This document shows, in pieces, positions 12,554 to 37,823 of a stretch of 64,000 nt of DNA. The DNA is taken from assembly GCA_046757925.1 (NCBI GenBank), contig JBHHZE010000011.1, positions 4,145 through 68,144 of the forward strand, in the 5' to 3' direction. The position numbers were made by a program, and so were the translations under genes. Source of the stretch: Gemmatimonadales bacterium (lineage in GTDB: Bacteria > Gemmatimonadota > Gemmatimonadetes > Gemmatimonadales > GWC2-71-9). The notes beneath the pieces are model-generated. The model ran no database searches and was not told where the DNA came from. It saw only the letters and a program-made list of their open reading frames with translations. Within the stretch, counting starts at the first letter, position 1. Each line of letters starts with the position of its first letter.

Positions 12554-13066
12554 TTAACCGCGGGTCAGCGCAAGCGCAACCACGGCATCCGCTACCTCGG
12601 CAACACTCTTGAAGTCGGTTGAGATTCGGCACTGACACCGTGAATAGAACGGTTCCCGTTCGGCAAGCAGTCCTCTGAGGCGTGCTAGCAGATCTCCATC
12701 GTTCAGCAACGGCCGCGTGCTGTCACCCTCCAGCCTACCTGCCGAGACCTCAGGACTCGTTTCCAGATACACCGTCAGCGCCCGGCTCTTCAACCCAGCC
12801 AGATTGTTGGGTTGAGCGGCCCAACCACCGCCGGGAACGATGACTGCCGGAGGCTCCTGCAGGGCGCGAAGCGTTTCTTCACGTTCCATCGCACGGAACT
12901 CAGCCTCACCGATGGAAGCAAAGAGCTCACTGATCTTTTGACCGGTTCGCCGCTCAATGATGCTGTCGATGTCGAATAGCCGGCTGGTGAGTTTCCGCGC
13001 TAGGAGTCTACCAACACTCGACTTCCCCGAGCCGGAAGGGCCTACCAGTACCACGTGACACCTCAA
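12554..13066 (-). CDS. aroK: Shikimate kinase
   Basis: 170 aa with Walker A LVGPSGSGKSSVGRLLA, and an AroK-like DxD/ISELF region. Has a 4-nt overlap with the aroC stop. Confidence 0.85.
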   Translation of the reverse strand: MRCHVVLVGPSGSGKSSVGRLLARKLTSRLFDIDSIIERRTGQKISELFASIGEAEFRAMEREETLRALQEPPAVIVPGGGWAAQPNNLAGLKSRALTVYLETSPEVSAGRLEGDSTRPLLNDGDLLARLRGLLAEREPFYSRCQCRISTDFKSVAEVADAVVALALTRG

Positions 13067-14268
13067 TCTTCTTTCGCTCCCAGTTTACTCCAGCGCGCAT
13101 CCAGCGCCTCGAGGTAGCGCTCATAGTTGTCACGCATTTCCACGAGGGAGTCGCCGCCGAATTTCTCAGACATTGCATCAGCCAGCACCAACGCAGCCAT
13201 AGCCTCGGCGATCACTCCCATCGCCGGCACGGCTGTAACGTCCGAGCGCTCTGACTGGGCTTTTGCCTCTCCGCCGGTCTCGATGTTCACGGTATCGAGC
13301 GGCCGCCGCAGCGTAGATATCGGCTTCATTGCCACTCTCAGCACTACCGGCTCACCCGTCGTCATTCCTCCCTCCAACCCACCGGCTCGATTGGTAACTC
13401 TACTTACTCCGCCCCTCGGAATCTCCTGGCTTCGCATGATTTCATCGTGGACCTGAGAACCCCTGGTTCTAGCCGCCTCAAAACCCATACCGATCTCAAC
13501 GCCCTTGACCGCAGGAATGGACATGACCGCACCGGCGAGCCGTCCATCCAGCTTACGATCCCACGATACGTGTGAGCCCAATCCCACGACTGCGCCAGAG
13601 ACCACTATTTCTGCCACACCGCCCAACGTATCCCGCTCCTTCATGGCAAGATCCACTGCCTTCACCATTGCTTCACTGGCATCCGGGTCCAAGCATCTGA
13701 CCGGAGACACATCTGCTGCCTCGTTGAGTGGGTTGGGCAGTGCCGGCGGCACGTTAGCCTTCACCGGTCCCAACTCAATCACATGACTCCCTATCTCGAC
13801 CCCGAACTCCTTCAGCAGCCGTCGGGCTACGGCACCACAAGCGACTCGCGCTGCGGTCTCGCGCGCGCTTGCGCGTTCGAGGATATCACGGGCATCGCTG
13901 CGCGCATACTTCAACACTCCGGCCAGGTCGGCATGTCCCGGCCTGGGCCTGGTCACCCGTCTACGTCGCTTCGCCGATTCGACCTCGTCGGGTTCGGCAG
14001 CCATCACGTCGACCCAGTTGTCCCAATCCCGGTTGCGAATCAGAAGGCCGATCGGAGAGCCGAGCGTCTCCCCCGCTCGAACGCCCGAGATGAACTCGAC
14101 GGCATCGGACTCGATCTTCATTCTCGCTCCTCTTCCGTATCCCGCCATCCGGCGCCGGAGCTGATGGTCGATGTCGTCGGCTATCAATGGCAGGCCGGCA
14201 GGTACCCCCTCGAGGATCGCGACCAGGCCCTTACCATGTGACTCACCCGCGGTTGTGAATCTGATCAT
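13063..14268 (-). CDS. aroC: Chorismate synthase
   Basis: MIRFTTAGESHGKGLVAILEGVPAG, RPGHADL and GRSSARETAARVA-like motifs. About 400 aa. Confidence 0.95.
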   Translation of the reverse strand: MIRFTTAGESHGKGLVAILEGVPAGLPLIADDIDHQLRRRMAGYGRGARMKIESDAVEFISGVRAGETLGSPIGLLIRNRDWDNWVDVMAAEPDEVESAKRRRRVTRPRPGHADLAGVLKYARSDARDILERASARETAARVACGAVARRLLKEFGVEIGSHVIELGPVKANVPPALPNPLNEAADVSPVRCLDPDASEAMVKAVDLAMKERDTLGGVAEIVVSGAVVGLGSHVSWDRKLDGRLAGAVMSIPAVKGVEIGMGFEAARTRGSQVHDEIMRSQEIPRGGVSRVTNRAGGLEGGMTTGEPVVLRVAMKPISTLRRPLDTVNIETGGEAKAQSERSDVTAVPAMGVIAEAMAALVLADAMSEKFGGDSLVEMRDNYERYLEALDARWSKLGAKED

Positions 14269-14333
14269 GATGATAACTCTAGCGCAGGGTGTCAGCCTAC
14301 GCCAACAAAGTCTGTCATTGTGTTCAAACGAAC

Positions 14334-14355
14334 GAGCCCGGTTCAGGCCGGGCTC
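14334..14355 (-). terminator. Candidate intrinsic terminator after the pilMNOPQ-lipoprotein operon
   Basis: GAGCCCGG / CCGGGCTC 8-bp GC-rich stem with a 6-nt loop, about 50 nt after the stop at 14405. On the minus strand it is followed by GTTCGTTTGAAC, a modest T content. Confidence 0.4.
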
Positions 14356-14404
14356 GAGGATTGTCGCTACATGGGGTATGCAGCCCCACTGTTCACCAAC
14401 GCGC

Positions 14405-16861
14405 CTACCGCTGCGACATGCCGAATCCGGATACCGGGAACGTGTTGGTGATGCTCGGCAGCCTAACCGTTACCACACCGTTCGACGTAACACCGATCAA
14501 GATCTGCTCGTTGGTTGGCAGCTTGGCCACGCGCAGTGGCCCGATGATCGGGTCGCGAATCGGAATCGTGGCAACCTTCCCAAAGAAGAAGGTATCGAAC
14601 ACATCGATCTCGGGATCTTCGCTTGCGAGAAACACCAACCGATCATCCGGGTCCAAGCTCCCTCCAAAGGTGCCCGCGGTTCCTCCGACTCCGGCTTCGA
14701 ATGCGTGGTCGAAGTTGAGGTCCATGCCCGGGTTGATGCCGCTCTGTGCAATGAGACCTTTTAGACGCAGAGATTCGTTCAGCACGTAGACCGAATCCGT
14801 CGTGCGGACCATATTGGTCAATCCATTGAAGTTGACCGCGATCCCTGTAACACTCGTTGCCGTGTTGCTGATAAAGTCCCGCACCCGGAAACTCTGCGTA
14901 ACACCGTTGTCCTCCTCGAACGGACCGCTCAGAGAAATCGTATCGTTTGCAACTATGATGCTACCTACACAGGTTCCCGTCGTGAGGCCCGCCTGCGAAT
15001 TGTATCCTACCGCCTGGGCGAACGTCTGACCTCCCACGAGTCCCCCCTCACCGATCAGCGCGTGAGTAAAATCACCCGAGTTACGGACAAAGGTCGTATC
15101 TCGGAACACCAACCTGTCGATGTCGACCATGATCCCGCAGGCCGCGGCCAGAAGGGTATCTGGGTTGGTGCCTGCGCCTCGGTCGGCAATTACTCGGAGC
15201 GTGTCGAACTGCGGCGCGGGCAGTACCTGCGCATGCTCCCACAGGAAGTGCGACGAGGGCGTTGCAGAGGTGAGGTTCTCCCAACGCACCGACCCTCGTA
15301 CCGGCAAGGTTCCCTGGTCCGTCGTAGGCGTGGTTGAATAAACCGCTATGATCTGATCGGCGGCACAGGGACCGACACCCGGTCTACACGTCATCCCCAG
15401 GAACTGCGGCCGGTCGGAGAAATCGTGTCTGGTGAATTTGATTTGAATCACGTTCGTGGCGGCATCCAGCTCGGTCGTAACCTGGTCCACCAAGAAGTTG
15501 GGCAATGAGTGCCGCCGCACTTCCCTTCGCAACCGCAAGTCAACGATTGAGAGATCCGTTTCACCAGAGTTCGCAACTACAACCGTATCTCCGGCAGTGC
15601 CATTCGTTGCATCCTTGGGCCAAAGAGCGATACCCCACGGCCGTGAGCCAACAGGGATGCCGCTGGTAACAAACGACGAATCCACCACTTGGAATATCTC
15701 GAGTCTATTGAGATCCACATTCGTCATATAGATCTCGTTCAGGCTGCGGCTGTAGATGGCGTCGACGATGCGGCCTCCGGCGGGAAGAGGCTTGGTGACA
15801 CCGTTCACAACGATGACGGTATCGATCCGGACCGGACCGCCCACAGTGCCGTCGATCGTGGCGGATCCTGTATTCCCGGCTGCATCGGTGGCAGTCGCAC
15901 TCACGAGCAGGGTTTGGGGGAACACTGTAAAACTGAGATCGAGACCAAACGTCTGGCTCACATCTGTGAGGCCGCTAAATGCTGCCGTGGCACTCTTGAC
16001 GGGTGTACCGTCGAGAAGAGTTGCCGCATAAGTGATTTGCGTGACCCCGCTGGCATCAGTGGCCTGGACCGTAATGGAGTCGGTCACCTCCACTCGCTTG
16101 GCGATCTGGAAATCCACAGTTGGAGCTTGATTATCGGCTCCGATCGACTGGACCGTGACTGTCAGTGGGGTGGCGAGAGCGGTTCTGCCGGTCGAATCGG
16201 TGGCAAAGCCTACGATGTCGAACGTGCCATTTGATGTTCCCGACGGCACCGCAAGCGTATCTACGAAATCGACTGTATCGGGCAGCGGCGAACCGCGAGT
16301 GATAGACACGCTGTCGGTCACCACCCCGGTGACTACATACCCGACCTGAGTTATTCCATCCCGTTGAATTGCGAGGACCTCGACTGGCAACTGCAAGCCC
16401 GGCGAAGCAACGGCGCCAACATTCGGCTTCAGCATCTGGACCGACAGAGCGTCATCGTTCACCAGGAACACCGAATCTTGGGCGGTGGCGGTGAGATCAC
16501 TGCCATCAGTCGCGGTAGCCTGTATCGCGATCATGCCGCCAGCTGTGGAGTTAGCTGGAAGCGCAATACTGATTCCGAGCGCGATCGATGTTACCGCCGA
16601 GGTGAAGATCGTATCTATCTGCGTGCTGAAGCCACCGCTCAGGGTGATGGATATGCTCTTGATGCCAAGGTTATCCGAAGCATTGACCCCGAAAACGACG
16701 CCGCTCGCCAAACTCAGAGTATCGCCCGCTGTCTTATCGATGGCGATCGAAGGGCTAAACTGATCGCTCTCGAATCCCGGTTGGAACTGCTGTTCCCCAC
16801 AACCGATGGCGGCGAGCGTAACTACACCGGCCGTGATTCCGTTTAGTAATCGAGTTCGCAC
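14405..16861 (-). CDS. Large lipoprotein with N-terminal Ig-like repeats and a C-terminal YVTN-type beta-propeller-like region; last gene of the pilMNOPQ operon
   Basis: Signal peptide plus lipobox (VVTLAAIGC). Three Ig-like repeats, each with a D..G(I/V)..(I/V) signature (DNLGIKSISITLSGG; DGITQVGYVVTG; DASGVTQITYAAT). Then YVTN-like blades (IYMTNVDLNRLEIFQVVDSSFVTSGIPVGSRPWGIAL). It starts 25 nt after the pilQ stop. Confidence 0.6.
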   Translation of the reverse strand: MRTRLLNGITAGVVTLAAIGCGEQQFQPGFESDQFSPSIAIDKTAGDTLSLASGVVFGVNASDNLGIKSISITLSGGFSTQIDTIFTSAVTSIALGISIALPANSTAGGMIAIQATATDGSDLTATAQDSVFLVNDDALSVQMLKPNVGAVASPGLQLPVEVLAIQRDGITQVGYVVTGVVTDSVSITRGSPLPDTVDFVDTLAVPSGTSNGTFDIVGFATDSTGRTALATPLTVTVQSIGADNQAPTVDFQIAKRVEVTDSITVQATDASGVTQITYAATLLDGTPVKSATAAFSGLTDVSQTFGLDLSFTVFPQTLLVSATATDAAGNTGSATIDGTVGGPVRIDTVIVVNGVTKPLPAGGRIVDAIYSRSLNEIYMTNVDLNRLEIFQVVDSSFVTSGIPVGSRPWGIALWPKDATNGTAGDTVVVANSGETDLSIVDLRLRREVRRHSLPNFLVDQVTTELDAATNVIQIKFTRHDFSDRPQFLGMTCRPGVGPCAADQIIAVYSTTPTTDQGTLPVRGSVRWENLTSATPSSHFLWEHAQVLPAPQFDTLRVIADRGAGTNPDTLLAAACGIMVDIDRLVFRDTTFVRNSGDFTHALIGEGGLVGGQTFAQAVGYNSQAGLTTGTCVGSIIVANDTISLSGPFEEDNGVTQSFRVRDFISNTATSVTGIAVNFNGLTNMVRTTDSVYVLNESLRLKGLIAQSGINPGMDLNFDHAFEAGVGGTAGTFGGSLDPDDRLVFLASEDPEIDVFDTFFFGKVATIPIRDPIIGPLRVAKLPTNEQILIGVTSNGVVTVRLPSITNTFPVSGFGMSQR

Positions 16862-16886
16862 GGTTTCCCTCTCGTTAGCTCGCGGC

Positions 16887-18701
16887 CTACTGACCAGGCC
16901 GATCCAGCACGTGCGGGGTGACCAGTATCAGCAAATCACGCCGCTGTTCACGCCGAGTTGTGAACCCGAACAAGCCGCCCACAATCGGTAGGTCTACAAG
17001 AAACGGGATACCGCTCTTTGCCACAGTGACCTCCGTCACGGTCAGTCCACCGATGACTGCGGTCTCTCCATCGTCCACAAGAATCTGGCTGCCGGCTTCC
17101 TGGGTCTGGAAGGTAAATCCGACATCAGCAGGTGCGGCACGGACGGCCGAATTCTCCACTGTCACCTGCATCAACACCTGACGGTTATTGGTCACATGTG
17201 GCGTCACCCTGAGCTGCAAACCGGTCGGCACGATCGTGGTCACTGCACGGGGCGTTCCGGTACCCTGTCCGCCGGTCTGCGAACTCGCATCGATCTGTCG
17301 AATCGGAGTCCTCTCACCGACCAGTATGTACGCTTCGGTATTATCTGCGGTCGTTGTGAGAGGTTCGGCCTGGAGATCGGCAAGCTCGACCCGCTGGAGT
17401 GCGTCCACAAACGACGTCAGATTGAAACTCCCGATAGCTGTCGAGAAAATCAGTTGCAGCGCCGGCGAAGGCACCTCTGCGTCTGCGTTAGCGATACCGG
17501 ACAACGCGTTACCGCCCAGGTCCACGACGTTGATGTCCCGATCGAACGTGCCCGTTGCTCGCACGGCATCCGGCACTCCATCCCCATCCGTATCTACGGC
17601 CTCCGAAGTCGAAGGATCGGGACGTGCAACGAGCCTATTGAAGAATTGTTGTGACGTACCCAGGTCGTACTTGATTCCCAAGTCCTCGATGTCCGTTCGA
17701 TCGACAAAAATGAGCTTTGCCTGGATGGAAACCTGCGGTGTTCGTTTGTCGAGTTGGCTCACCAGACTCGTATCGGACGGTATCCGGCTCACGGCGTCGG
17801 TTATGATCAAACTGTTAGTTGTAGTATCAGCTACGATCTTTCCCCGACTCGATACGACTGATGCCATGGCGATCGCCAGTGCGGTAGCCCTTGCATAATT
17901 GACCGGCTTAACGACCGTTACCAGCGGCTCTGTCGAGTCGCGGGCAGCAAGCGACGCGCGACTATCCACTCGGATGATTCCCGGCGGGTCTTCCGTCGCC
18001 GTCAGGCCTTGGGATTCCAGAATGATTCTGAACGCCACGTCCCACGGCTGATTCTTGATGGTGGCGTTGATATAGGCATCGATATCTTGTCCAACTATGA
18101 TCGACTTGCTGCTGAACTCGGCAAATGCGTTGGCTACATCACGAAGGTGTGCTGAGTCATACGTAACCGTCACTCGGGGCTGTTGCGACTGCGGCAGTCC
18201 CGCGTTCGGTGGGGCAAACATCGTCGTGGCTACCGGCGTGGGCTCGGTCGCTTCCACCGGTGGCACGCGATCCGCAAATGACGCGGTCGACCACGCCCCA
18301 AAACTCCGATCCGACCCGAACGTTATCCTGATCGCATCGTCAGAATATTCCAGCTGATAGTCCTTGAGCGACTCCAGCGCCAGGACCACCCTCACAACGT
18401 CCGGTCGGAGTTGCGAGTACCGGACATCCAGGATTCCACCGCGGTTCTTACCATCGTATCGCGTTCCCGGAGCCCTCAACGTTGCAGTCGTGATGTCCAC
18501 AACGAGACGTGCCGGGTTCTCCAGCGTGAAATCCTGAACGCTTACCGTTCCGGTTACGTCTATGATGACCTGTGCGCGCCCAGGGCCCGGTAGAACGCTT
18601 ACCGCGGTCACCTCTCCGGGACCGGCAACCTCGCTCGGCCCCGCAAGGGCTCGGGGCGCGGCCATGGTCGCAACCACGGCAGCGAGAATCAACCGTTTCA
18701 T
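16887..18701 (-). CDS. pilQ: Type IV pilus secretin PilQ
   Basis: Signal peptide, AMIN domain (AQVIIDVTGTVSVQDFTLENPARLVVDI), N0/N1 domains, and a C-terminal secretin domain (GETAVIGGL...IPFLVDLPIVGGLFG...RDLLILVTPHV). Confidence 0.9.
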   Translation of the reverse strand: MKRLILAAVVATMAAPRALAGPSEVAGPGEVTAVSVLPGPGRAQVIIDVTGTVSVQDFTLENPARLVVDITTATLRAPGTRYDGKNRGGILDVRYSQLRPDVVRVVLALESLKDYQLEYSDDAIRITFGSDRSFGAWSTASFADRVPPVEATEPTPVATTMFAPPNAGLPQSQQPRVTVTYDSAHLRDVANAFAEFSSKSIIVGQDIDAYINATIKNQPWDVAFRIILESQGLTATEDPPGIIRVDSRASLAARDSTEPLVTVVKPVNYARATALAIAMASVVSSRGKIVADTTTNSLIITDAVSRIPSDTSLVSQLDKRTPQVSIQAKLIFVDRTDIEDLGIKYDLGTSQQFFNRLVARPDPSTSEAVDTDGDGVPDAVRATGTFDRDINVVDLGGNALSGIANADAEVPSPALQLIFSTAIGSFNLTSFVDALQRVELADLQAEPLTTTADNTEAYILVGERTPIRQIDASSQTGGQGTGTPRAVTTIVPTGLQLRVTPHVTNNRQVLMQVTVENSAVRAAPADVGFTFQTQEAGSQILVDDGETAVIGGLTVTEVTVAKSGIPFLVDLPIVGGLFGFTTRREQRRDLLILVTPHVLDRPGQ

Positions 18702-19180
18702 GGCATTCCCTCCTGCTTGCGCGCTCTTTGGCGCAGCACCACTTGACGTTCAGTTCCAAACTCAGAAACGATCACCACCACCTGACCCGGCTGTATCTCC
18801 GCCACTCTCATTCGACCCAACTCATCACCCACACGCACCGAGTACGCCTGGTTGTTACCGCTGGCGCTCGTATCGCGCAATACTGCCACGCTGGTAGCCG
18901 GATATCTTGGATCGTACGTGATACTCGTCACTCTGAGATCCTCCACCAGCGGACGCACCTCGCCCGATTGTATCAACGATACGAATGGGTTTCTCCCCGA
19001 TCCGCGATAAGAAAACACCTCACGTGACAACTCAGTCTTTCTGGCCTGGACCGTCGCCGTGTCGATAGGTGGCGGTGGCGGTGCAACACGCTCCGATATT
19101 GTCTGCTCCGCGCTACTTCCTCCACAACTCAGCATCAGTCCGCCACAGAAAGAGACCATCAGCGCCGTCTTAGCCGCCAC
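18698..19180 (-). CDS. pilP: PilP-like pilus assembly lipoprotein
   Basis: 160 aa with a probable lipoprotein signal (GGLMLSCGG). Matches the size and C-terminal beta-domain of PilP. Sits between pilO and pilQ with a 4-nt overlap. The call rests largely on position. Confidence 0.6.
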   Translation of the reverse strand: MAAKTALMVSFCGGLMLSCGGSSAEQTISERVAPPPPPIDTATVQARKTELSREVFSYRGSGRNPFVSLIQSGEVRPLVEDLRVTSITYDPRYPATSVAVLRDTSASGNNQAYSVRVGDELGRMRVAEIQPGQVVVIVSEFGTERQVVLRQRARKQEGMP

Positions 19181-19784
19181 CTTGACCTCCCTGGGCAGGC
19201 TGAGATTGTCGCTTCACATAGGTCCTCAGCTGAAAACGTGCTTCTACTGCGGCCCCGGTCGTATCGCCGAGCGTACGCTGATTGACTACACTGGCGAGCG
19301 TGAGTGATACATCGTAGGGCACCATTATTCGTGGCAGACTAGCTATATCAGACATCAGCACACCTATGTCATCGTAGTAGCCGTAAACAGTCCAGCGATA
19401 ACGATGGACGTCGAAGGACACTCCGCTCTCCACCGCGAGTGGATTGAACTCACCGACCTTGACACCGTTTTTCTTTGCTCGGTCCGAGATGTTATCGATG
19501 AGGGTCGCGACCTCGCTCCCACCCGTCGGCACCAGTAGCGACATACGCTGGAGCGTCGCCTCATAGTCTCTCACCTGCTGCCGAATGCTTTCAACCGTAC
19601 CCCTGGCAAGGTCGCTTCTCGCCGAGTCCACTACAGCTTGCAGAGAATCGTTGCGGAGTCGCAGATCCTGCTGTTGTTGGATGCTGTCCGCTCTCCAGTA
19701 CATCCAAAACGCGATACCACCACCTATCGCCGCTACAATGGCTACCCCCAGCAGTTGTTGCCGTTCTTTGGCCGTTATCGCCAT
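19170..19784 (-). CDS. pilO: PilO-like pilus assembly protein
   Basis: Single N-terminal TM (LLGVAIVAAIGGGIAFWMYW), a coiled-coil, then a ferredoxin-like C-terminal region. Positioned between pilN and pilP. Confidence 0.7.
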   Translation of the reverse strand: MAITAKERQQLLGVAIVAAIGGGIAFWMYWRADSIQQQQDLRLRNDSLQAVVDSARSDLARGTVESIRQQVRDYEATLQRMSLLVPTGGSEVATLIDNISDRAKKNGVKVGEFNPLAVESGVSFDVHRYRWTVYGYYDDIGVLMSDIASLPRIMVPYDVSLTLASVVNQRTLGDTTGAAVEARFQLRTYVKRQSQPAQGGQGGG

Positions 19785-19800
19785 ATCTTGGACACCCCCC

Positions 19801-20484
19801 TCAACGTACCGTCTCCTCGAGCGGCACCGTGCGAATGAACGCAGAGTCCGCCGTCTGGAAGGTGGCCGTAATAGTAAATGAGATCACCTGCTTGTCGTTG
19901 TCCAAAACCTGCTGCGTCCCACCCAGTTGCACGTCACCGATCCAAGGCGAGTTGGCGAGGTTCCGTGTGAATCGTGTATACCCACTCAAGTCGGCAGTGC
20001 GGCCCGCAATGGTGAAGCTCACCGGGGGCGTGCTGACCTCGCTCGGTTCTGCTGTGATGTCTGGAGCCGGAGCCGGCACGAATTCCAGACTCACCAACCA
20101 CGTAAAGTCCGGCAACGCTTTCGTCACTTCCTCTAATATGTGGGGCCAGATATAGCGCTCCGCATCGATGTCGCGGATCGACGCGAGTTCCGCCACCAGT
20201 GAATCACCCAGTCGCTGCTGCCGCTGTTTCGTGCGCAGAAGCGAACGGTATTGGCGAGCCAAACCCTCTATCCGAGTCGAATCTTCTTGTAGTACAGCAA
20301 GCTTCGCGCCCTCTGTGTAGTAAGTGTAGCCGACAAATGGCACCACGATCAGCCACGATCCGACCGCCGCCAACATGAGGGGATCACGGATCTTGCCAAA
20401 GAGTTCACCGAAATCTGGCAGTGCCAAGCCAGAAGCGGCTTTTCTCTTCTTCTTTTTACCGGGAAGTAGATTGATTTCAATCAT
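19801..20484 (-). CDS. pilN: PilN pilus assembly protein
   Basis: Canonical N-terminus MIEINLLPGKKKKRK (the INLLP motif that binds PilM), followed by one TM and a coiled-coil. Confidence 0.8.
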   Translation of the reverse strand: MIEINLLPGKKKKRKAASGLALPDFGELFGKIRDPLMLAAVGSWLIVVPFVGYTYYTEGAKLAVLQEDSTRIEGLARQYRSLLRTKQRQQRLGDSLVAELASIRDIDAERYIWPHILEEVTKALPDFTWLVSLEFVPAPAPDITAEPSEVSTPPVSFTIAGRTADLSGYTRFTRNLANSPWIGDVQLGGTQQVLDNDKQVISFTITATFQTADSAFIRTVPLEETVR

Positions 20485-20505
20485 TGGAACGCTCGGACTC
20501 GACGC

Positions 20506-21549
20506 TCAAGACCTGAGGGCCAAACCGGTGGCCAGCATCAGGAGCGGCGCCACTTCGTCCACGTTGATGGCGTCAAACACACCGTCCTTCACTTTCAGCC
20601 GTTGAATTGGATTCGCCACCTCCACAGGCAGGTTGAGTCTCTGACCGAGGACCTCGGTGAGACCCGGTATCCGTGCCCCGCCCCCACAGCAATAGACTCG
20701 CTGTATCGCACCGGCCTCCCGACTGGCAGACTGAAGGAAGGCCGACGCCCGCTCGACGCCGACAGCGATTTCATCGCCCCAGCTCTGGACGAACGGATCG
20801 AGATCCGGTGAGCGCTCGAAGCCCTTCAGAAGAGCGTCCGCGTCATCGGCAGAGAGCCCTCTCTCTCTCTGCAGATCCTCTCGGACCTTGCGCGTCCCAA
20901 TAGTGAGATCTCTCGTCAACAGTGGAATACCTTCATCCAAGACATTCACATTGGTGAGTTCGTGCCCAGTGTTCAGCAGGGCGGCAACCCCCTCCATGGC
21001 CTCCGGATGATTCAACCCGAAGGCGTTGTGCAGAGCGAAGGCATCAACGTCTACTATTTCCGCCTCCAGGCCTGCCTGCGCCAGCAGCTGAACCTTGTCC
21101 TCGACGAGGTCTCGCTTGGCAGCTACCAGTAGCACATCCATCTGGAGCCCCTCGCCCTCGGGATCCAGAATCTGAAAATCCAGCTCCACTGCCTCGATGT
21201 CGAACGGAACGTGCTGCTGAGCTTCCCAGCGAACCACCTCGAAGGCCTCCGATTCCTTCATCCGATCGACTTGGATCTTCTTGATAATCACGTCACGGCC
21301 CCCGACAGCGACCACGACCCTCTTCTGCTTTAGTCCGGCCGACTTCACAAGACCCTGGATCGTATCCGACACGATCCCCGGATCCATGATTTCTCCTTCA
21401 ACGATCGCGTCGGCCAAGACGGGGGTCACAGACACTCCACTCAGAATGGGCTCGCCCTTGGCGTGGTCAACCACGACAAGTTTTAGCAGTCCGCTTCCTA
21501 TGTCCAAACCAACCGTTCTAGAACTTCCACCAAGCCCGAAAAGCGCCAT
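20506..21549 (-). CDS. pilM: PilM, actin-like ATPase of the type IV pilus alignment complex
   Basis: VGLDIGSGLLKLVV N-terminus, FtsA/actin-like fold length, and C-terminal CCGGGARIPGL. Confidence 0.9.
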   Translation of the reverse strand: MALFGLGGSSRTVGLDIGSGLLKLVVVDHAKGEPILSGVSVTPVLADAIVEGEIMDPGIVSDTIQGLVKSAGLKQKRVVVAVGGRDVIIKKIQVDRMKESEAFEVVRWEAQQHVPFDIEAVELDFQILDPEGEGLQMDVLLVAAKRDLVEDKVQLLAQAGLEAEIVDVDAFALHNAFGLNHPEAMEGVAALLNTGHELTNVNVLDEGIPLLTRDLTIGTRKVREDLQRERGLSADDADALLKGFERSPDLDPFVQSWGDEIAVGVERASAFLQSASREAGAIQRVYCCGGGARIPGLTEVLGQRLNLPVEVANPIQRLKVKDGVFDAINVDEVAPLLMLATGLALRS

Positions 21550-21673: not shown

Positions 21674-22801
21674 TTACGGGATTTCTGCGCCCATCAGCCA
21701 ACCGCGTTCTCGCAGAAAAAACCCGGTGCCAGACCCCACGACCGCTGCGTGCATTGCACAGCTCGAGTAACGAAGCTCGCTCCCTCCGAGAACCTGGTTC
21801 GCTCTGCCCGACGACCCCAGTGATACGACGGCACCGAGAACCCGGGCGCCGTTAGCGCTGACAGAGCCGCTGGAGACAGCGAGACCGTCGTACTCCACTC
21901 CTGGCGCCAGCGAAAGATCACCGTCCACCACCAGAATCCCCTGACCCCGCCCCCCAATAAGTTGCAGGCTCCCCAGCGAGTAGACCAGAGGGAAGTAATC
22001 TCCACACGGACCCGAGCGATCATAAGGGTCGCCCCAATTCGTCGGGGCCGCTGTGACGCAAGTCGCATTCGACGAAATGGGCGCAACCTGGAAGCTCCCG
22101 CCATTGAATACTACCGTCGCGACATTCCGGAACTCGGCCAGGCCGGCTACTCCCAGGTCCCGCAGCAATGAGGGCGGCAATAGCGAGTCCAGCATGACTC
22201 CCAGGCCACCGCTCACGCAAGTTGGACACCCCGTCACCGCCGTCGACGACGAGTCGGCCGCGGGGATGCGGACGGCAGGAAATCGCGACGAATCGGGGGG
22301 ACATGTCCACCCAAAGGGTGAATGGTCGGAACCATCGATGATAGACCACCGGTCGATTTCCGTTGGTGCACTCGTGGTAAGAGCGGCCCGAGCTCTAAGA
22401 TCCAACGGCTCAATGCGGACCAGCGCCCCCAATCTCTGACCGGCCGCGCTAGGGCCCCCGATCCCTTCCGCGACAACGAGGAACAGCAGTTCGTTCATCC
22501 GGGTCAAACTCCCTCGAAACCCGCCCGACCCTGCTGTTTGACCGGCGAACGCAATGCTGTCACCTATCGACAGGCGATTGTAAACACCAGTGTTCCACCG
22601 CCGCACGGGTTCGACGAGACCGCGCTCTGCGACCGCAAGAGACTGCCGCAGACGGAGCAGATTGCGACCGATACGGTGCTCCGTTAGGCCTACCAACAGC
22701 GTGATGCTTACCAACGCGCCAACTACGAATAGGGCAAACACTGCAAGAGCGAGCGCAGCACCACGCTGCAAGCGACCAACTCTCACTGTCTGGTCAGCCA
22801 C
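21674..22801 (-). CDS. PilX-N-domain pilus assembly protein (large minor-pilin-like protein)
   Basis: N-terminus RLQRGAALALAVFALFVVGALVSITLL matches the PilX_N pattern (no Glu5). Has the C-terminal GQGILVVDGDLSLAPGVEYDGLAV motif common in this family. Follows the PilV/PilW-like genes. Confidence 0.6.
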   Translation of the reverse strand: MADQTVRVGRLQRGAALALAVFALFVVGALVSITLLVGLTEHRIGRNLLRLRQSLAVAERGLVEPVRRWNTGVYNRLSIGDSIAFAGQTAGSGGFRGSLTRMNELLFLVVAEGIGGPSAAGQRLGALVRIEPLDLRARAALTTSAPTEIDRWSIIDGSDHSPFGWTCPPDSSRFPAVRIPAADSSSTAVTGCPTCVSGGLGVMLDSLLPPSLLRDLGVAGLAEFRNVATVVFNGGSFQVAPISSNATCVTAAPTNWGDPYDRSGPCGDYFPLVYSLGSLQLIGGRGQGILVVDGDLSLAPGVEYDGLAVSSGSVSANGARVLGAVVSLGSSGRANQVLGGSELRYSSCAMHAAVVGSGTGFFLRERGWLMGAEIP

Positions 22802-22811
22802 GGCCGTTGCG

Positions 22812-23672
22812 TCATCGCATGGGGTTGTTGCGGAGGGCTATCAGAGTGCTGAGCGAATCTCGTAATACCGCACCCCCGGCTTGCGCCCGCTTGGGGGTAC
22901 GCGTGCCCACACCGACCAGCACAACTTGTATTGCGGCAACGTTCGCGGGAATCGCCGTGCGGTTGCCCACCCCATCGAGATAGGTGAAGCGCAGACCACC
23001 CGGCGCAAGCGGCCCAGCGACCGGCTGCGTACTTGTCCAACCACGTCCCTTCTTCCACTCGCCGACACCCAGCCAGATTTGTCCGTCTCCACCCCTATAC
23101 TGCAGATACCGAACCTGCTGGTACGCCCGGATGGCGCTTCCTGGGCGTACTGCAGCGAGTTCTGCCCTGGTCAGACCGGCAACTTGGACAGTGATTCCGG
23201 CCACCTTACCAGGGCACCCACGCGCGTAGCTGACCGATCGAATATCGGCGCGCAGCCATCTGTCGCCCGACACGCCGCCCGCGTCTCGGGCGACCCAAAT
23301 CAGAATCGAGTCTCTAGCCGGATCGATGTGACGCAAACCGAAGATCGGCACCCGCCCCATGATGACTTGGAAACGCCCGATATCGGGAGCCCTACAAAGG
23401 AATGCAACGCTTCTCACGACCTTCACCGTGAGCGAACCAGCCTCCATGTGGACGATATCGCTACCTAGAGAATCTCCTGCGTCGAGCCCCCGCAAATCCA
23501 TCTCGAGCGCAAACAGGCCTTCTCGAAGATTGGCACTGATGCCCGCCCGCTCAGTCTGTTGGCGGTAGAAGCGTTGACTCGCAATGACAACACCTCCAAG
23601 GGTGCTGGCGACCACAACGAGGAGCAGCATAGAAATGACTGATTCCACCAACGTGAAACCCTGCTGCTTCAT
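22812..23672 (-). CDS. PilW-like minor pilin (prepilin-type N-terminal cleavage/methylation domain)
   Basis: MKQQG|FTLVESVISMLLLVVV gives Gly-1, Phe+1 and Glu+5. At 286 aa its size fits PilW-type minor pilins. Confidence 0.65.
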   Translation of the reverse strand: MKQQGFTLVESVISMLLLVVVASTLGGVVIASQRFYRQQTERAGISANLREGLFALEMDLRGLDAGDSLGSDIVHMEAGSLTVKVVRSVAFLCRAPDIGRFQVIMGRVPIFGLRHIDPARDSILIWVARDAGGVSGDRWLRADIRSVSYARGCPGKVAGITVQVAGLTRAELAAVRPGSAIRAYQQVRYLQYRGGDGQIWLGVGEWKKGRGWTSTQPVAGPLAPGGLRFTYLDGVGNRTAIPANVAAIQVVLVGVGTRTPKRAQAGGAVLRDSLSTLIALRNNPMR

Positions 23673-24022
23673 GGGATGATCCGGCAGGGGATCGCCAACG
23701 CAAACGTGTCGCTGCGCTCGGGTGACGCGGAGGTTACTACTAGAAATCCGTCTGGCATTCCGTTACTGGAGACCCGCATCTGCCATTCTCCTCCTACAGA
23801 GCTTCGGCTCCACTCTCCCAAGGCATTCCCATTACAGCCCCTACTCCGCAACATGTCTGTTTGTGACCCGACCCAGAAGCTCTCTTTGGCAAGCTGGCGA
23901 CCTTCCGCAGCGGTATGTGCTACTAGTGCTGAACTGGACACAAGACCAAGCAGGCCCGCCGTCAAGAGAAGGATTGCCATCACGAGTTCGACCAGGGTGA
24001 CCCCCCCACTTGTACCAACCAT
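23669..24022 (-). CDS. PilV-like minor pilin (prepilin-type N-terminus)
   Basis: MVGTSGG|VTLVELVMAILLLTAGLLGL with Glu+5. The start is set at ATG 24022 because AGGAGG lies 5 nt upstream. The track ORF extends to 24133 through a non-pilin-like leader. Confidence 0.6.
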   Translation of the reverse strand: MVGTSGGVTLVELVMAILLLTAGLLGLVSSSALVAHTAAEGRQLAKESFWVGSQTDMLRSRGCNGNALGEWSRSSVGGEWQMRVSSNGMPDGFLVVTSASPERSDTFALAIPCRIIP

Positions 24023-24065
24023 CACACCTCCTAGAAGCCAAAAGCCTGTGTTCGACTTCACAATA

Positions 24066-24084
24066 CCGCCTCCCCAGGAGGCGG
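24066..24084 (-). other. GC-rich stem-loop between pilA and the minor-pilin genes
   Basis: CCGCCTCC / GGAGGCGG, an 8-bp perfect stem with a 3-nt loop (or 7 bp with a 5-nt loop). No adjacent T-tract. Possible attenuator or RNA-stability element. Confidence 0.3.
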
Positions 24085-24211
24085 GCCTAACCGATTTATT
24101 GCTGGGATGAACCTTTTTTTGCAGACCCCACACGATGGCGTGGGCGTCAACAACCGGACTGCTGCGGTTTGCGGGTAGGCTTTGGAAAAAGGGTGCCCCT
24201 CGGACAGTCCC

Positions 24212-24595
24212 TCAGTTGCAGGCCGGGCTGCCCTCCAATGTCGCAGGCGATGGTGGTGCGGCCGTGCCTACGAACATGGCACATGTGTTCGGGAGACCAG
24301 TGTAAGAAGCGGTAGCCGACCAACCGGCGATGTCTCCGCTTATCATCGTTATTACGACGTTCTTCGACGGTGTATAGGAGAACGCGGCATTCGGCACCGC
24401 ACCGTTGTAGTACGTGGCGTTGTCGTAATAGTAGCTCTCCTGGGCACTGGCCAGGTTCTTGAGATCGGTCTTCATGGTGGCCACGTAGGCCTTGCCCTTG
24501 GTCGAGGCGAACTTCGGCACCGCGACCGCGGCAAGGATTCCGATAATAACGACCACTATCAGCAGCTCTATCAGGGTAAACCCACGGCGGCTCAT
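24212..24595 (-). CDS. pilA: Type IVa pilin (downstream copy)
   Basis: MSRRG|FTLIELLIVVVIIGILAAVAVPKF is the class III signal peptide, with Gly-1/Phe+1/Glu+5. Has a C-terminal Cys...Cys disulfide loop (NTCAMF...GSPACN). RBS GGAGGGAGGGG lies upstream. Confidence 0.9.
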   Translation of the reverse strand: MSRRGFTLIELLIVVVIIGILAAVAVPKFASTKGKAYVATMKTDLKNLASAQESYYYDNATYYNGAVPNAAFSYTPSKNVVITMISGDIAGWSATASYTGLPNTCAMFVGTAAPPSPATLEGSPACN

Positions 24596-24616
24596 GCGGT
24601 CCCCTCCCTCCTGAAC

Positions 24617-24658
24617 GCTGCGCCGGATGGCACTGGTGCAAGTTTCATCCGGCGCAGC
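24617..24658 (-). terminator. Perfect 13-bp GC-rich hairpin between the two pilin genes (attenuator or partial-terminator candidate)
   Basis: GCTGCGCCGGATG (24617-24629) pairs perfectly with CATCCGGCGCAGC (24646-24658), with a 16-nt loop. It lies 41 nt after the upstream pilA stop and 21 nt before the downstream pilA ATG. No U-tract follows it. Confidence 0.45.
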
Positions 24659-25263: not shown

Positions 25264-25283
25264 TGCAAGGCTATTTGCAAGGC
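25264..25283 (-). promoter_or_regulatory. Tandem direct repeat TGCAAGGC-N4-TGCAAGGC (candidate enhancer/UAS for PilR)
   Basis: Two exact 8-mers with a 12-nt period straddle the stop codon of the TPR glycosyltransferase gene, about 85-105 nt upstream of the -24 element. A third partial TTGC follows. Confidence 0.3.
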
Positions 25284-27139
25284 GACTTGCTGTTCGCGAC
25301 CCTGGCCCTAAGCAATTCAATGGCCCGTCGCTCGGGCTCAGGTGCTAGTGTCAGGGCGGTGTCGGCCTGGGCAATTGCGGTGCGACAGGCTCCCGCACCG
25401 GCTGCCGCCTGAGCCGCCATTTTCCGGACCACCCAAGCTCGTGGCTCCCTGGCTATCAGTTCATCGAGAACCGAGGAGGCGCTGTCGAACTGCTTTGCCG
25501 CAAGCAGGACCTCACCCCTCACCAACGCGATCCCCCTTGTTTCACCGTGCAGTCGGGACATGGCATCCAAGACCCGGCTGGCCTCATCCGTGTGGCCAGA
25601 CCGCTCGAGCGCCAGAGCTAGAGGAAGCGCGGCCGATATGCGACCGGAATCGAGATCCACGGCGCGGGTCAGCAGCGTGATGGCCGGTTCATATAGATCT
25701 GAGGCAGCGTAACGTCGTCCCAGGTCTTCAAGCAATTGAGGATGATCTGGATTCAACCGGATCGCCATACGCATCTCTCGTTCTCCAAGGACCGAATCGC
25801 CACGCTCAAAAGCGTACCATCCGAGCGCCCAATGACTGCGGAACGAATTGGGAGCATCCTCTAGCAGATGGGTGAAAAAACCATCGTTGTCGTGCCAGAC
25901 CGTAGCACGTTGTATGCTTCGAGCCGCAAACAATACGCTGACGACCGCCACCACGACCCCCACCGGCACATGGGCGCGGTCCCTATCCAACGAAACAAGC
26001 CCCGAGTTCACGGCACCGCTCACCGCAAACGCCCAACCCACGGATGGGAGAAACAGCAGCCGTTCGGCAAGCAGTATTTCCAGCGGAACTACCACGTTGG
26101 ACACGACCGACACCGTCACGAAAAACAAGACCACACCGGCAACCAGCGGTGTCTCGTTTCTCTTCAGCCACAAGAGGCCCAGCAGTGCGGACCAAATCAC
26201 CACTGCCAATGCGTGATTCACCCCGAACGCCGGTTCGGGGACCAGCTCGAGTGGTGAGTAATCAGCCGATAGATGAATCGGAAGGAACAACAGCCTCAGC
26301 CATTCTAGGGATACCGGGAGCATCACCATGGCCCGCTGCACGACGGAGCCACGGCTGAGCCCACTGGCAAGCCCGCCCGCCGCAGTCGCGTCGCCTACAA
26401 CTTGATTTCTGAGCAGCAAATACACTGCGACCATCAGGACGAACGGCACTAGCGACAGCCACTCGCGCCGCACGATCGTCGTAAACTCGAGCTGTTTCTT
26501 CCGACCCACCAACATCCAGAGGAGCATCAACACGCCTGGAACGGTCAGCGCGTGCTCCTTCGCACCCAACGCAAAGGCAAACCCTGCGAGCGCCAACCCC
26601 AGCAGGCCGACCCGGGATCGAGCACTCTCCGCGATCCCTCTCTCCCACATCGCAAGCATGGCCGCCAGGTACCCAACCGCTGCCAGCAGCTCCGCCTGTC
26701 CCACCAAGTTCGCTGTTACCTCAACGTGCACTGGATGAACGGCAAACAGGATTCCCGATACCAACCCTACTGCCGGCGAAAACATCCGCGTCCCCAGGAG
26801 TGCCACGAGAAACGCAACGATTCCGTAGAGAACGATATTGACTGCGTGAAAAATCGTGGGACTGCCACCACCCACAGCCCACTCGATCGCAAGACTCACG
26901 AGTGTCCCGGGGCGCCACATCGCTCCTCCTCGATCGGGAGGCCAATAGCTCGATGTCACTAATGCCTTTAAGTCCAGGGTATGAACCACGTCGTTCTGTT
27001 GAATGATCCACACATCGTCGTACACGAATCCATTTACAATGGAAGGGAGAGCCACTACCAAAGCGACCGTCGAAGCGAGGATGCAGATGGAGAGTGTAGA
27101 ACTCGTAAACCGTTCGATCAGCCCGAGTACACCCTTCAT
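25271..27139 (-). CDS. Multi-pass membrane GT-C-like glycosyltransferase with C-terminal TPR repeats (TMTC/DUF1736-like)
   Basis: The first-loop motif NGFVYDDVWIIQQND is followed by about 10 TM segments, then a C-terminal TPR region (ERGDSVLGEREMRMAIRLNPDHPQLLEDLGRRYA...). The start is set at ATG 27139 (ATGA overlap with the upstream stop). The track start at 27235 adds 32 aa. Confidence 0.7.
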   Translation of the reverse strand: MKGVLGLIERFTSSTLSICILASTVALVVALPSIVNGFVYDDVWIIQQNDVVHTLDLKALVTSSYWPPDRGGAMWRPGTLVSLAIEWAVGGGSPTIFHAVNIVLYGIVAFLVALLGTRMFSPAVGLVSGILFAVHPVHVEVTANLVGQAELLAAVGYLAAMLAMWERGIAESARSRVGLLGLALAGFAFALGAKEHALTVPGVLMLLWMLVGRKKQLEFTTIVRREWLSLVPFVLMVAVYLLLRNQVVGDATAAGGLASGLSRGSVVQRAMVMLPVSLEWLRLLFLPIHLSADYSPLELVPEPAFGVNHALAVVIWSALLGLLWLKRNETPLVAGVVLFFVTVSVVSNVVVPLEILLAERLLFLPSVGWAFAVSGAVNSGLVSLDRDRAHVPVGVVVAVVSVLFAARSIQRATVWHDNDGFFTHLLEDAPNSFRSHWALGWYAFERGDSVLGEREMRMAIRLNPDHPQLLEDLGRRYAASDLYEPAITLLTRAVDLDSGRISAALPLALALERSGHTDEASRVLDAMSRLHGETRGIALVRGEVLLAAKQFDSASSVLDELIAREPRAWVVRKMAAQAAAGAGACRTAIAQADTALTLAPEPERRAIELLRARVANSKSPCK

Positions 27140-37209: not shown

Positions 37210-37823
37210 GGCACGATCACGAGCGTTTTGAGCCGAGCAATTGTGACACTTCCGATTCCTTTCACTCTCGCAAGATCCGCCAGTGAGTTGTACGGACCAT
37301 GGGCCTCGCGCTGGGCAACTATGGCCTTCGCCCTGATCGGCCCTATGCCGGGCAACTTGGCCAACACGTCTGCCGACGCCTGGTTGAGCCTTACCAGATC
37401 AGCCTTCGACTCAACCTGTCGCACCGGTCTTCGGCCCGAAAACACCGCGTACGGTTCGATCCCTGCCAGCAGGGCCGGTCCAACCCCACTCACCCTATCC
37501 AGCTCTGCCAACGATCCAAACGAGCCATGGGAATCGCGATCGGCGACGATTCTGGCAGCTAGTGCCGGCCCGACGCGAGGCAGTCGCAGCAGTTCCTGGG
37601 CCGAGGCACGATCCAGGTCGATTTTCTCTCCCTTGACCAAAGGTCTGGCAAGCCGGGCCGATCGCGCTGCGACGCTGTCGCGACTCGGACGTGGAACATC
37701 CGTGCCGCGATAGAGCACCGCCCCCGGAGCGTCACCAGATCCCAGAATCAACCGCAGCACCAGACCTATGCCGGCCAGCCCCAGCAACAGGGCCGCTGCC
37801 TTACGATCATCTCGAGTCGCCAC
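37206..37823 (-). CDS. ComEA-family helix-hairpin-helix DNA-binding protein with duplicated HhH modules
   Basis: N-terminal TM/signal anchor (AAALLLGLAGIGLVLRLIL). Two ComEA-type modules follow: DLDRASAQELLRLPRVGPALAARIVADRDSHGSFGSLAELDRVSGVGPALL and RLNQASADVLAKLPGIGPIRAKAIVAQREAHGPYNSLADLARVKGIGSVTI. Confidence 0.75.
   Translation of the reverse strand: MATRDDRKAAALLLGLAGIGLVLRLILGSGDAPGAVLYRGTDVPRPSRDSVAARSARLARPLVKGEKIDLDRASAQELLRLPRVGPALAARIVADRDSHGSFGSLAELDRVSGVGPALLAGIEPYAVFSGRRPVRQVESKADLVRLNQASADVLAKLPGIGPIRAKAIVAQREAHGPYNSLADLARVKGIGSVTIARLKTLVIVP

Follow-up and report, generated by a model that had tools for sequence, protein, structure and literature searches.

A 64,000-nucleotide (nt) stretch from a Gemmatimonadales bacterium (contig JBHHZE010000011.1, positions 4,145 to 68,144; hereafter the window) carries a type IVa pilus gene cluster, in which the secretin gene pilQ is directly followed on the same strand by a gene for a protein of 818 amino acids (aa). 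This gene, referred to here as X, is real and under purifying selection; it occupies the sixth place in the type IVa pilus operon of Gemmatimonadota, which reads pilM-N-O-P-Q-X. Its product is a predicted lipoprotein precursor, in which a lipidated Cys, a short flexible linker, a stalk of Big_7-type immunoglobulin-like (Ig) domains and a conserved beta-propeller head would follow one another. The gene, the rest of the operon and the next gene on the 3' side are arranged as follows, in window coordinates.

14405..16861, reverse strand (-): X, coding sequence of the Ig-stalk and beta-propeller lipoprotein, 818 aa with a GTG start, from the list of open reading frames (ORFs) and the translation
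16862..16886, reverse strand (-): spacer between pilQ and X, 25 nt with a GAGGG Shine-Dalgarno-like site, read from the sequence
16887..18701, reverse strand (-): pilQ, secretin gene directly upstream of X, with Pfam matches to Secretin, AMIN and Secretin_N
18698..21549, reverse strand (-): remainder of the operon, with pilM, pilN, pilO and pilP-like genes (Pfam PilM_2, PilN and PilO)
18698-19180, reverse strand (-): pilP-like lipoprotein gene, lipobox LMLSC
19170-19784, reverse strand (-): pilO, Pfam PilO
19801-20484, reverse strand (-): pilN, Pfam PilN
20506-21549, reverse strand (-): pilM, Pfam PilM_2
13063..14268, reverse strand (-): aroC, chorismate synthase gene (Pfam Chorismate_synt), the next gene 3' of X, 136 nt past the X stop

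The initial annotation of the window had placed X 25 nt past the pilQ stop on the same strand, which is exact. The spacer reads ...GAGAGGGAAACC-GTG and holds GAGAGGGAAAC, the Shine-Dalgarno-like site; a terminator between the two genes, which the annotation had allowed for, was looked for by a terminator scan, and the 25-nt gap contains no terminator-like site or structure. The best NCBIfam match of the PilQ protein is TIGR02515, the model of the type IV pilus secretin PilQ, at 215 bits, which lies below the 284-bit cutoff.

The linkage of X to pilQ was assessed from both sides. Among 80 loci retrieved through X, 61 have more than 2.5 kb of sequence upstream of the gene, and pilQ lies directly upstream in all 61; the same holds for four further, far more divergent members, including variants of 1049 and 1410 aa. 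To avoid circularity, loci were also retrieved in reverse through PilQ, by a metagenome scan with a 14-sequence PilQ alignment. X stands directly downstream in 70 of the 74 loci thus anchored that have at least 400 nt 3' of pilQ (69 by tblastn, the 70th, L111, having a divergent lipoprotein start with an Ig domain that was recognised by reading the sequence). Three loci (L008, L009 and L011) have neither aroC nor aroK at this position, and X still follows pilQ in them. Adjacency in relatives, a check proposed by the initial annotation, thus proved strong in both directions, and a propeller-bearing member apart from pilQ was not encountered in more than 130 loci, very divergent lineages and changed flanks included. 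The homologues unlinked to pil genes that the annotation had considered were likewise not seen, with only giant Big_7-repeat proteins found elsewhere; proteins of 2.7–2.9 kaa were considered as distant paralogues and rejected, since they match via Big_7 repeats alone and have unrelated neighbourhoods. Junctions between pilQ and X span 0-50 nt across the family and include a GGAG-type site; L086 has a 4-nt overlap of the pilQ stop with the X start. With its start 0-50 nt past the pilQ stop, X would therefore be made together with the secretin, and its coupling to pilQ is tight in position and probably so in translation.

The family is large, and judged by the searches it appears to be phylum-specific, found only in Gemmatimonadota, and unnamed. 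A word-indexed search gave 581 homologues at E<=1e-3, and an exhaustive profile search of 1.84 billion representatives gave 328 clusters at E<=1e-30. All matches with a named taxon belong to Gemmatimonadota, save one record with conflicting labels and one labelled "bacterium". Scanning one genome per GTDB species yielded 283 relatives of X, and all 80 of the 80 retrieved loci come from Gemmatimonadota metagenome-assembled genomes; no cultured species with X was found, all named matches being metagenome-assembled genomes. The homologues are annotated as "hypothetical protein" or "Ig-like domain-containing protein", and as "YVTN family" in 2 of 120 listed homologues (JGI). A literature search brought up no publication on pili of Gemmatimonadota, nor any that describes a pilMNOPQ operon with a propeller lipoprotein.

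The protein itself is divided as follows, in window coordinates and with residues of X in brackets.

16799..16861, reverse strand (-): predicted signal peptide and lipobox (residues 1-21, ...LAAIGC), with Cys21 as the lipidated residue
16460..16750, reverse strand (-): Ig-like domain 1 (residues 38-134), a beta-sandwich in the AlphaFold2 model, with Big_7 matches in homologues
16151..16444, reverse strand (-): Ig-like domain 2 (residues 140-237), from the AlphaFold2 model, with a weak PDB profile match to the bacterial Ig domain 9kvu_A (E=0.04)
15857..16120, reverse strand (-): Ig-like domain 3 (residues 248-335), from the AlphaFold2 model
14462..15823, reverse strand (-): C-terminal beta-propeller head with insertions (residues ~347-800), from the AlphaFold2 domain model, the most conserved part of X

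The N-terminus, VRTRLLNGITAGVVTLAAIGC, has the positively charged n-region, the hydrophobic h-region and the lipobox ending in Cys that are expected of a lipoprotein signal peptide, with VRTRLLNGITAGVVTLAAIG directly preceding the lipobox Cys. The LAAIGC lipobox singled out in the initial annotation is conserved, Cys21 being retained in at least 90% of an alignment of 59 homologues; its context is AIGC, and VWAC, VYAC, VFAC or VFGC in distant orthologues. AlphaFold2 modelling of the whole of X with the 59-sequence alignment (mean predicted local distance difference test score, pLDDT, of 86.7) gave a disordered linker after the Cys, three beta-sandwiches, which bear out the three Ig-like repeats claimed earlier, and a large all-beta C-terminal domain. 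A whole-chain Foldseek search against the PDB was uninformative, returning multi-Ig proteins only (complement C3 and alpha-2-macroglobulin, with template modelling (TM) scores of ~0.14), and the C-terminal domain was consequently remodelled alone. The resulting model of residues 340-818 has a pLDDT of 90.6 and a predicted TM score of 0.90, and it matches hundreds of beta-propellers in Foldseek at probability 1.0, the best being 7-bladed WD40 propellers with a target TM of up to 0.73. The model and the Foldseek matches establish a generic beta-propeller fold, with 4-stranded blades in a toroidal arrangement.

At the level of sequence signatures the protein is much less conspicuous. X of the window has no Pfam match at E<=0.01 and no NCBIfam match, and a sequence profile search of the PDB gave nothing significant, the best match being a bacterial Ig domain at E=0.04 and propellers following at E ~0.3 or worse. 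Big_7 (PF17957) is matched by 28 of the 59 homologues (best E=2e-7), the window protein itself falling short of E<=0.1, and the Ig domains of X thus appear to be of the Big_7 type. None of the 59 homologues matches any propeller-repeat model (YVTN, WD40 or other) or the PilY1 model, even at E<=0.1. The initial annotation had described a YVTN-type propeller, of which the propeller stands and the YVTN label does not: the likeness amounts to two blade motifs, IYMTN...LEIFQV and VVVANSGETDLSIVDL, and membership of the YVTN family was rejected after an hhalign comparison of the propeller profile with YncE, a member of that family from E. coli, returned a probability of 0.7%.

Full-length aligned homologues share 43-84% identity and have 68 invariant columns, most of them in the propeller. 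The mean pairwise distance is 0.73 for the propeller and 0.98 for the Ig region, compared with 0.51 for PilQ and ~0.75 for PilN and PilO; by distances and invariant columns alike, the propeller is conserved and the Ig region evolves faster. Members of 1040-1620 aa are common, and their added length is N-terminal, between the lipobox and the conserved core. These extensions carry Big_7 and DUF4625 matches, which points to more stalk domains, so that the Ig count ranges from three in this organism to roughly 10 in relatives, as judged from protein lengths of up to ~1600 aa. Five long variants of 1049-1619 aa (L085 8001-11150, L086 8001-12233, P0051, P0122 and P0137) have the same core and are still encoded directly after pilQ.

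On its 3' side the operon is bounded by a conserved structure.

14333..14356, reverse strand (-): GC-rich hairpin with a 9-bp stem and a 6-nt loop, a probable intrinsic terminator, from the terminator scan and RNA folding

This hairpin, already proposed as a candidate in the initial annotation and recovered by both methods, consists of CGAGCCCGG-CCTGAA-CCGGGCTCG, then TTCGTTTG; it begins 48 nt past the X stop, and its U-tract is weak. It is followed by a weak promoter-like site (14295-14267) ahead of aroC, and then by aroC, aroK and topA on the same side. Equivalents were surveyed in loci L004-L169. A strong hairpin was present within the first 150 nt past the X stop, or in the whole gap where that is shorter, in 77 of 77 loci, the median spacer from X to the next gene being 109 nt. 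Of 104 related loci, 89 have a stem of the form AGCCCGR...YCGGGCT at most 300 nt upstream of aroC, and this stem occurs only once elsewhere in the 1.47 Mb of the loci; the near-equivalent GAGCCCG-N(4-14)-CGGGCTC occurs once in the window. The hairpin is thus conserved in sequence as well as in structure, and its outer pairs covary (GAG/CTC, AAG/CTT, GGAG/CTCC), as does an inner R:Y pair. In one large subclade it is followed by a conserved GC(G/C)TGTTAT and then by the aroC ribosome-binding site, and in many relatives it stands merely ~25-40 nt ahead of the aroC start, as in ...CGGGCTCGCCTGTTATAGGAGG...ATG. An Rfam search of positions 12-26 kb found no family for it. A role beyond simple termination is conceivable for the hairpin, for instance within an aroC leader or promoter. 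Because it lies so close to the aroC start in many relatives, read-through into aroC-aroK is possible, and X is a candidate for the last transcribed gene. That aroC-aroK come after the pil operon, in the window (12554-14268, -) as in the related loci, recalls the pilMNOPQ-aroK-aroB arrangement known from Proteobacteria and suggests that pil and aro genes have long been linked, for no obvious functional reason.

X is missing from four of the 74 PilQ-anchored loci (L091, L095, L097 and L101), in which pilQ runs straight into aroC. The PilQ proteins of these loci are mutual nearest relatives and are nested among X-bearing lineages, and the pattern therefore looks like one secondary loss of X. In L095, the sole X-less locus with the whole operon on its contig, the pilM, N, O, P and Q ORFs are intact and the same GAGCCCGGC...GCCGGGCTC hairpin follows pilQ directly; L091, L097 and L101 have different hairpins there. 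The L095 hairpin and the intact pilMNOPQ thus show X as a self-contained unit placed between pilQ and the terminal hairpin of the operon. With X in ~95% of the sampled lineages and dispensable in at least one, the sequences identify it as an accessory component and not as a core one. Co-variation of X with the other proteins of the locus was measured by a mirror-tree test on 26 loci, with AroC and TopA controlled for, in which the partial correlations of X were 0.48 with PilQ, 0.46 with PilM, 0.23 with PilN and 0.04 with PilO. Taken separately, the N-terminal half of PilQ gave 0.46 and the secretin core 0.31.

The pilus cluster continues upstream of the operon and is complete, comprising pilB, pilT, pilC, pilS, pilR, pilA and three minor-pilin-like genes. 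Next to the minor-pilin genes (22812-24641), and ahead of pilM, lies a gene (21674-22801) whose 375-aa product has no Pfam match; an N-terminal hydrophobic segment gives this product a PilX-like look. Among the cluster ORFs scanned, no gene for PilY1, for a pilotin of the tetratricopeptide repeat (TPR) lipoprotein type or for a LysM/TsaP protein was found, in agreement with the initial annotation. The only TPR protein, of 654 aa (25271-27235, -, in the pilR-pilA interval), was considered as the missing pilotin and rejected, since it is polytopic in the membrane, has its TPR repeats at the C-terminus and is probably glycosyltransferase-like. The same interval encodes a second large polytopic membrane protein, of 688 aa (27136-29202, -), with no Pfam match and a weak STT3-like NCBIfam match, and a family 2 glycosyltransferase (29127-29858, -, between pilR and pilA). 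Together, the genes at 25271-29858 (-) resemble a module for the glycosylation of pilin or envelope within the pilus cluster. A gene for a ComEA-like helix-hairpin-helix (HHH_3) protein adjoins pilB (37206-37823, -); its presence hints at a possible additional role of the pilus system in DNA uptake. Residues 370-378 of PilQ (17568-17594, -) read DTDGDGVPD, resembling a thrombospondin-type-3 calcium-binding motif; they sit between N3 and the Pfam Secretin domain, in a stretch conserved across Gemmatimonadota PilQ.

X is not a homologue of PilY1/PilC, of the PilF/Tgl pilotins or of TsaP, and comparison with each of these bears on what it may do. PilY1 has a conserved propeller at its C-terminal end and varies in its N-terminal part, and X resembles PilY1/PilC in being a large, pilus-linked protein built in this way. 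X is also the only propeller protein in this pilus cluster, and no PilY1 gene follows the minor pilins, the place being taken by the PilX-like 375-aa gene. X could on these grounds be a PilY1/PilC analogue that promotes pilus assembly and adhesion through contacts of its propeller with the pilus tip or with the priming complex of minor pilins. This is very improbable, however. The PilY1/PilC Pfam family (PF05567) is matched neither by X at E<=0.01 nor by any of the 59 members at E<=0.1, and the structure prediction and Foldseek search that the initial annotation had suggested, while confirming the propeller, placed no PilY1 chain among the top 50 matches. X is encoded after pilQ, whereas PilY1 is encoded with the minor pilins (fimU-pilVWX-pilY1-type), and the N-terminal part of X is an Ig stalk instead of a von Willebrand factor A (vWA) or adhesin domain. 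Nor does X appear to be secreted in a non-lipidated form: it has a predicted lipid anchor, and the conserved lipobox Cys implies an attachment that is unfit for travel with a pilus tip and argues against a location of X there. The earlier proposal of a secretin-associated or PilY1-analogous component therefore holds for the coupling to pilQ (61/61 and 70/74), but not for the relationship to PilY1, for which neither a sequence match nor a top-50 structural match was obtained.

The pilotins PilF, PilW and Tgl offer a second comparison, as X is a predicted outer-membrane lipoprotein tied genetically to the secretin. Pilotins, however, are small all-helical TPR proteins, whereas X is an 85-kDa, all-beta protein of Ig domains and a propeller without any TPR match, and it is absent from a clade with intact pilMNOPQ (L095). 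TsaP and the Slk plug proteins, which are secretin-associated periplasmic accessory proteins acting at the PilQ channel, share with X a lineage-variable, non-core distribution (PMC13392014). They differ from it in fold, and X is predicted to be lipid-anchored and lacks LysM, no LysM match having been found in X or the 59 homologues. The known secretin-associated accessory proteins thus have folds quite unlike that of X; yet secretin-binding periplasmic accessory proteins are still emerging, SlkA and SlkB being examples (PMC13392014).

These comparisons frame the possibility that X faces the periplasm as a partner of the secretin, being an outer- or inner-membrane lipoprotein whose propeller docks onto the AMIN/N0/N3 domains of PilQ, onto PilP or onto peptidoglycan. 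It would then aid the targeting, assembly, stability or gating of the secretin, as a non-TPR analogue of PilF/Tgl, the TsaP ring or the Slk plugs. The tight coupling of X and pilQ in both directions, with short or overlapping junctions, is consistent with such a role, as are the lack of a pilotin or TsaP candidate among the cluster ORFs scanned, the emergence of SlkA and SlkB as proteins of this kind (PMC13392014), the conservation of the propeller, as expected for a fixed protein partner, and the somewhat higher correlation of X with the N-terminal half of PilQ than with the secretin core. How such docking might work is illustrated by BamB, a propeller lipoprotein that binds the POTRA domains of BamA, the periplasmic beta-rich parts of an outer-membrane machine; BamB has no Ig stalk, and its likeness to X would be one of mechanism. 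We nonetheless consider a periplasmic role unlikely. A stalk of 3 to ~10 Ig domains, as estimated from length, fits poorly with a machine of fixed dimensions, and a clade with intact pilMNOPQ has lost X cleanly, whereas known pilotins are generally needed for secretin assembly. PilQ is not specifically changed where X is absent, the mirror-tree signal is no higher for PilQ than for PilM, and no known pilotin has the fold of X.

A bolder form of the secretin link is that X represents a new class of secretin partner, an outer-membrane lipoprotein whose propeller docks onto PilQ or onto the emerging pilus at the pore. X might then stabilise the secretin or serve it as a pilotin of a non-TPR kind, gate or cap the pore from outside, or be a membrane-tethered counterpart of PilY1. 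We regard this as conceivable, if doubtful; were it true, the type IVa pilus machine of Gemmatimonadota would be a six-component PilMNOPQ-X.

Outside pilus biology, the closest architectural parallels are the archaeal S-layer protein 1l0q, which combines a YVTN propeller with PKD domains (Foldseek rank 9, E=1.2e-9), and Leptospira Lp49, a lipoprotein with Ig-like domains and a propeller of the 7-bladed type (weak profile match). Both differ from X in the order and number of domains, have no significant sequence similarity to it and are not linked to a pilus operon. The make-up of lipoprotein, Ig/PKD-like stalk and propeller is typical of generic surface proteins, and X might accordingly act at the surface or in the envelope independently of pili, be it as an enzyme, as an adhesin or in the manner of an S-layer protein. 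It would then have become fixed at the 3' end of the pil operon in the ancestor of Gemmatimonadota and be kept there by inertia. The region from pilM to topA is syntenic, the linkage of X to aroC is nearly as conserved as that to pilQ, X has been lost without loss of pilMNOPQ and the mirror-tree signal is unspecific, all of which would fit such an origin. We find it rather unlikely nevertheless, because no orthologue was found off the pilQ-adjacent position in the more than 130 loci, changed flanks included, because the start-stop overlap and the junctions of 10-50 nt point to coupled expression, and because X stays by pilQ in the three loci without aroC and aroK.

X is probably an accessory pilus or envelope factor that is not a relative of any known pilus protein. 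Our preferred reading, which is tentative, is that X is an outer-membrane-anchored and probably surface-exposed binding module that is co-produced with the secretin. In this scheme X would be lipid-anchored in the outer membrane beside the secretin, and its propeller would be displayed as a binding module, most probably on the cell-surface side, which is favoured because the length of the stalk varies so widely. X would serve a pilus-dependent surface interaction, as a short-range adhesin or ligand binder at the site of pilus exit, and would not be a core structural or assembly subunit. The combination of a lipid anchor, a variable stalk and a conserved distal head, as predicted for X, would be typical of a membrane-tethered binding module, and a stalk of 3 to ~10 Ig domains would be easier to house on the outside of the cell than within a periplasmic machine whose size is fixed.

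Several considerations weigh against this interpretation. Conserved adjacency is weak evidence and no proof of shared function, the more so as the whole pilM-to-topA block is syntenic in these genomes; in Proteobacteria, the adjacency of pilQ and aroK is conserved without a known functional link. A claim of secretin-specific co-evolution was rejected, the mirror-tree signal being unspecific and about as high for PilM as for PilQ. No signature of X loss was found in PilQ, in which 8 changes are specific to the X-less clade compared with 1-21 in X-keeping control clades, and the control clades change at the same positions too (377 and 379). The variable stalk length is circumstantial with respect to surface exposure, a periplasmic orientation is equally compatible with the lipoprotein signal, and no signal for the surface export of lipoproteins is known for Gemmatimonadota. 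The function, localisation and topology proposed here for X are drawn from sequence and model.

The prevailing view of type IVa pilus machines is of one fixed core, to which lineages add a few helpers at the secretin, namely PilF/Tgl, TsaP, FimV, Thermus PilW and the recently described Slk plugs. The present results indicate that an entire phylum that abounds in soils and sediments has an additional component of another kind, which is far larger and is hard-wired to pilQ. The fold elements of X are themselves common, and what is new is a type IVa pilus operon with an additional, phylum-specific component; the design of lipid anchor, Ig stalk and propeller is not known from any pilus accessory protein. 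Should X have nothing to do with pili, it would just add to the uncharacterised lipoproteins of the cell surface. Binding of X to PilQ or to the pilus would reveal a further route to building or using a secretin pore; as an adhesin expressed along with the pore, X would exemplify adhesion at short range that is coupled to the retraction of pili. Either way, X offers a concrete and testable target in a poorly studied phylum, and the family deserves a name.

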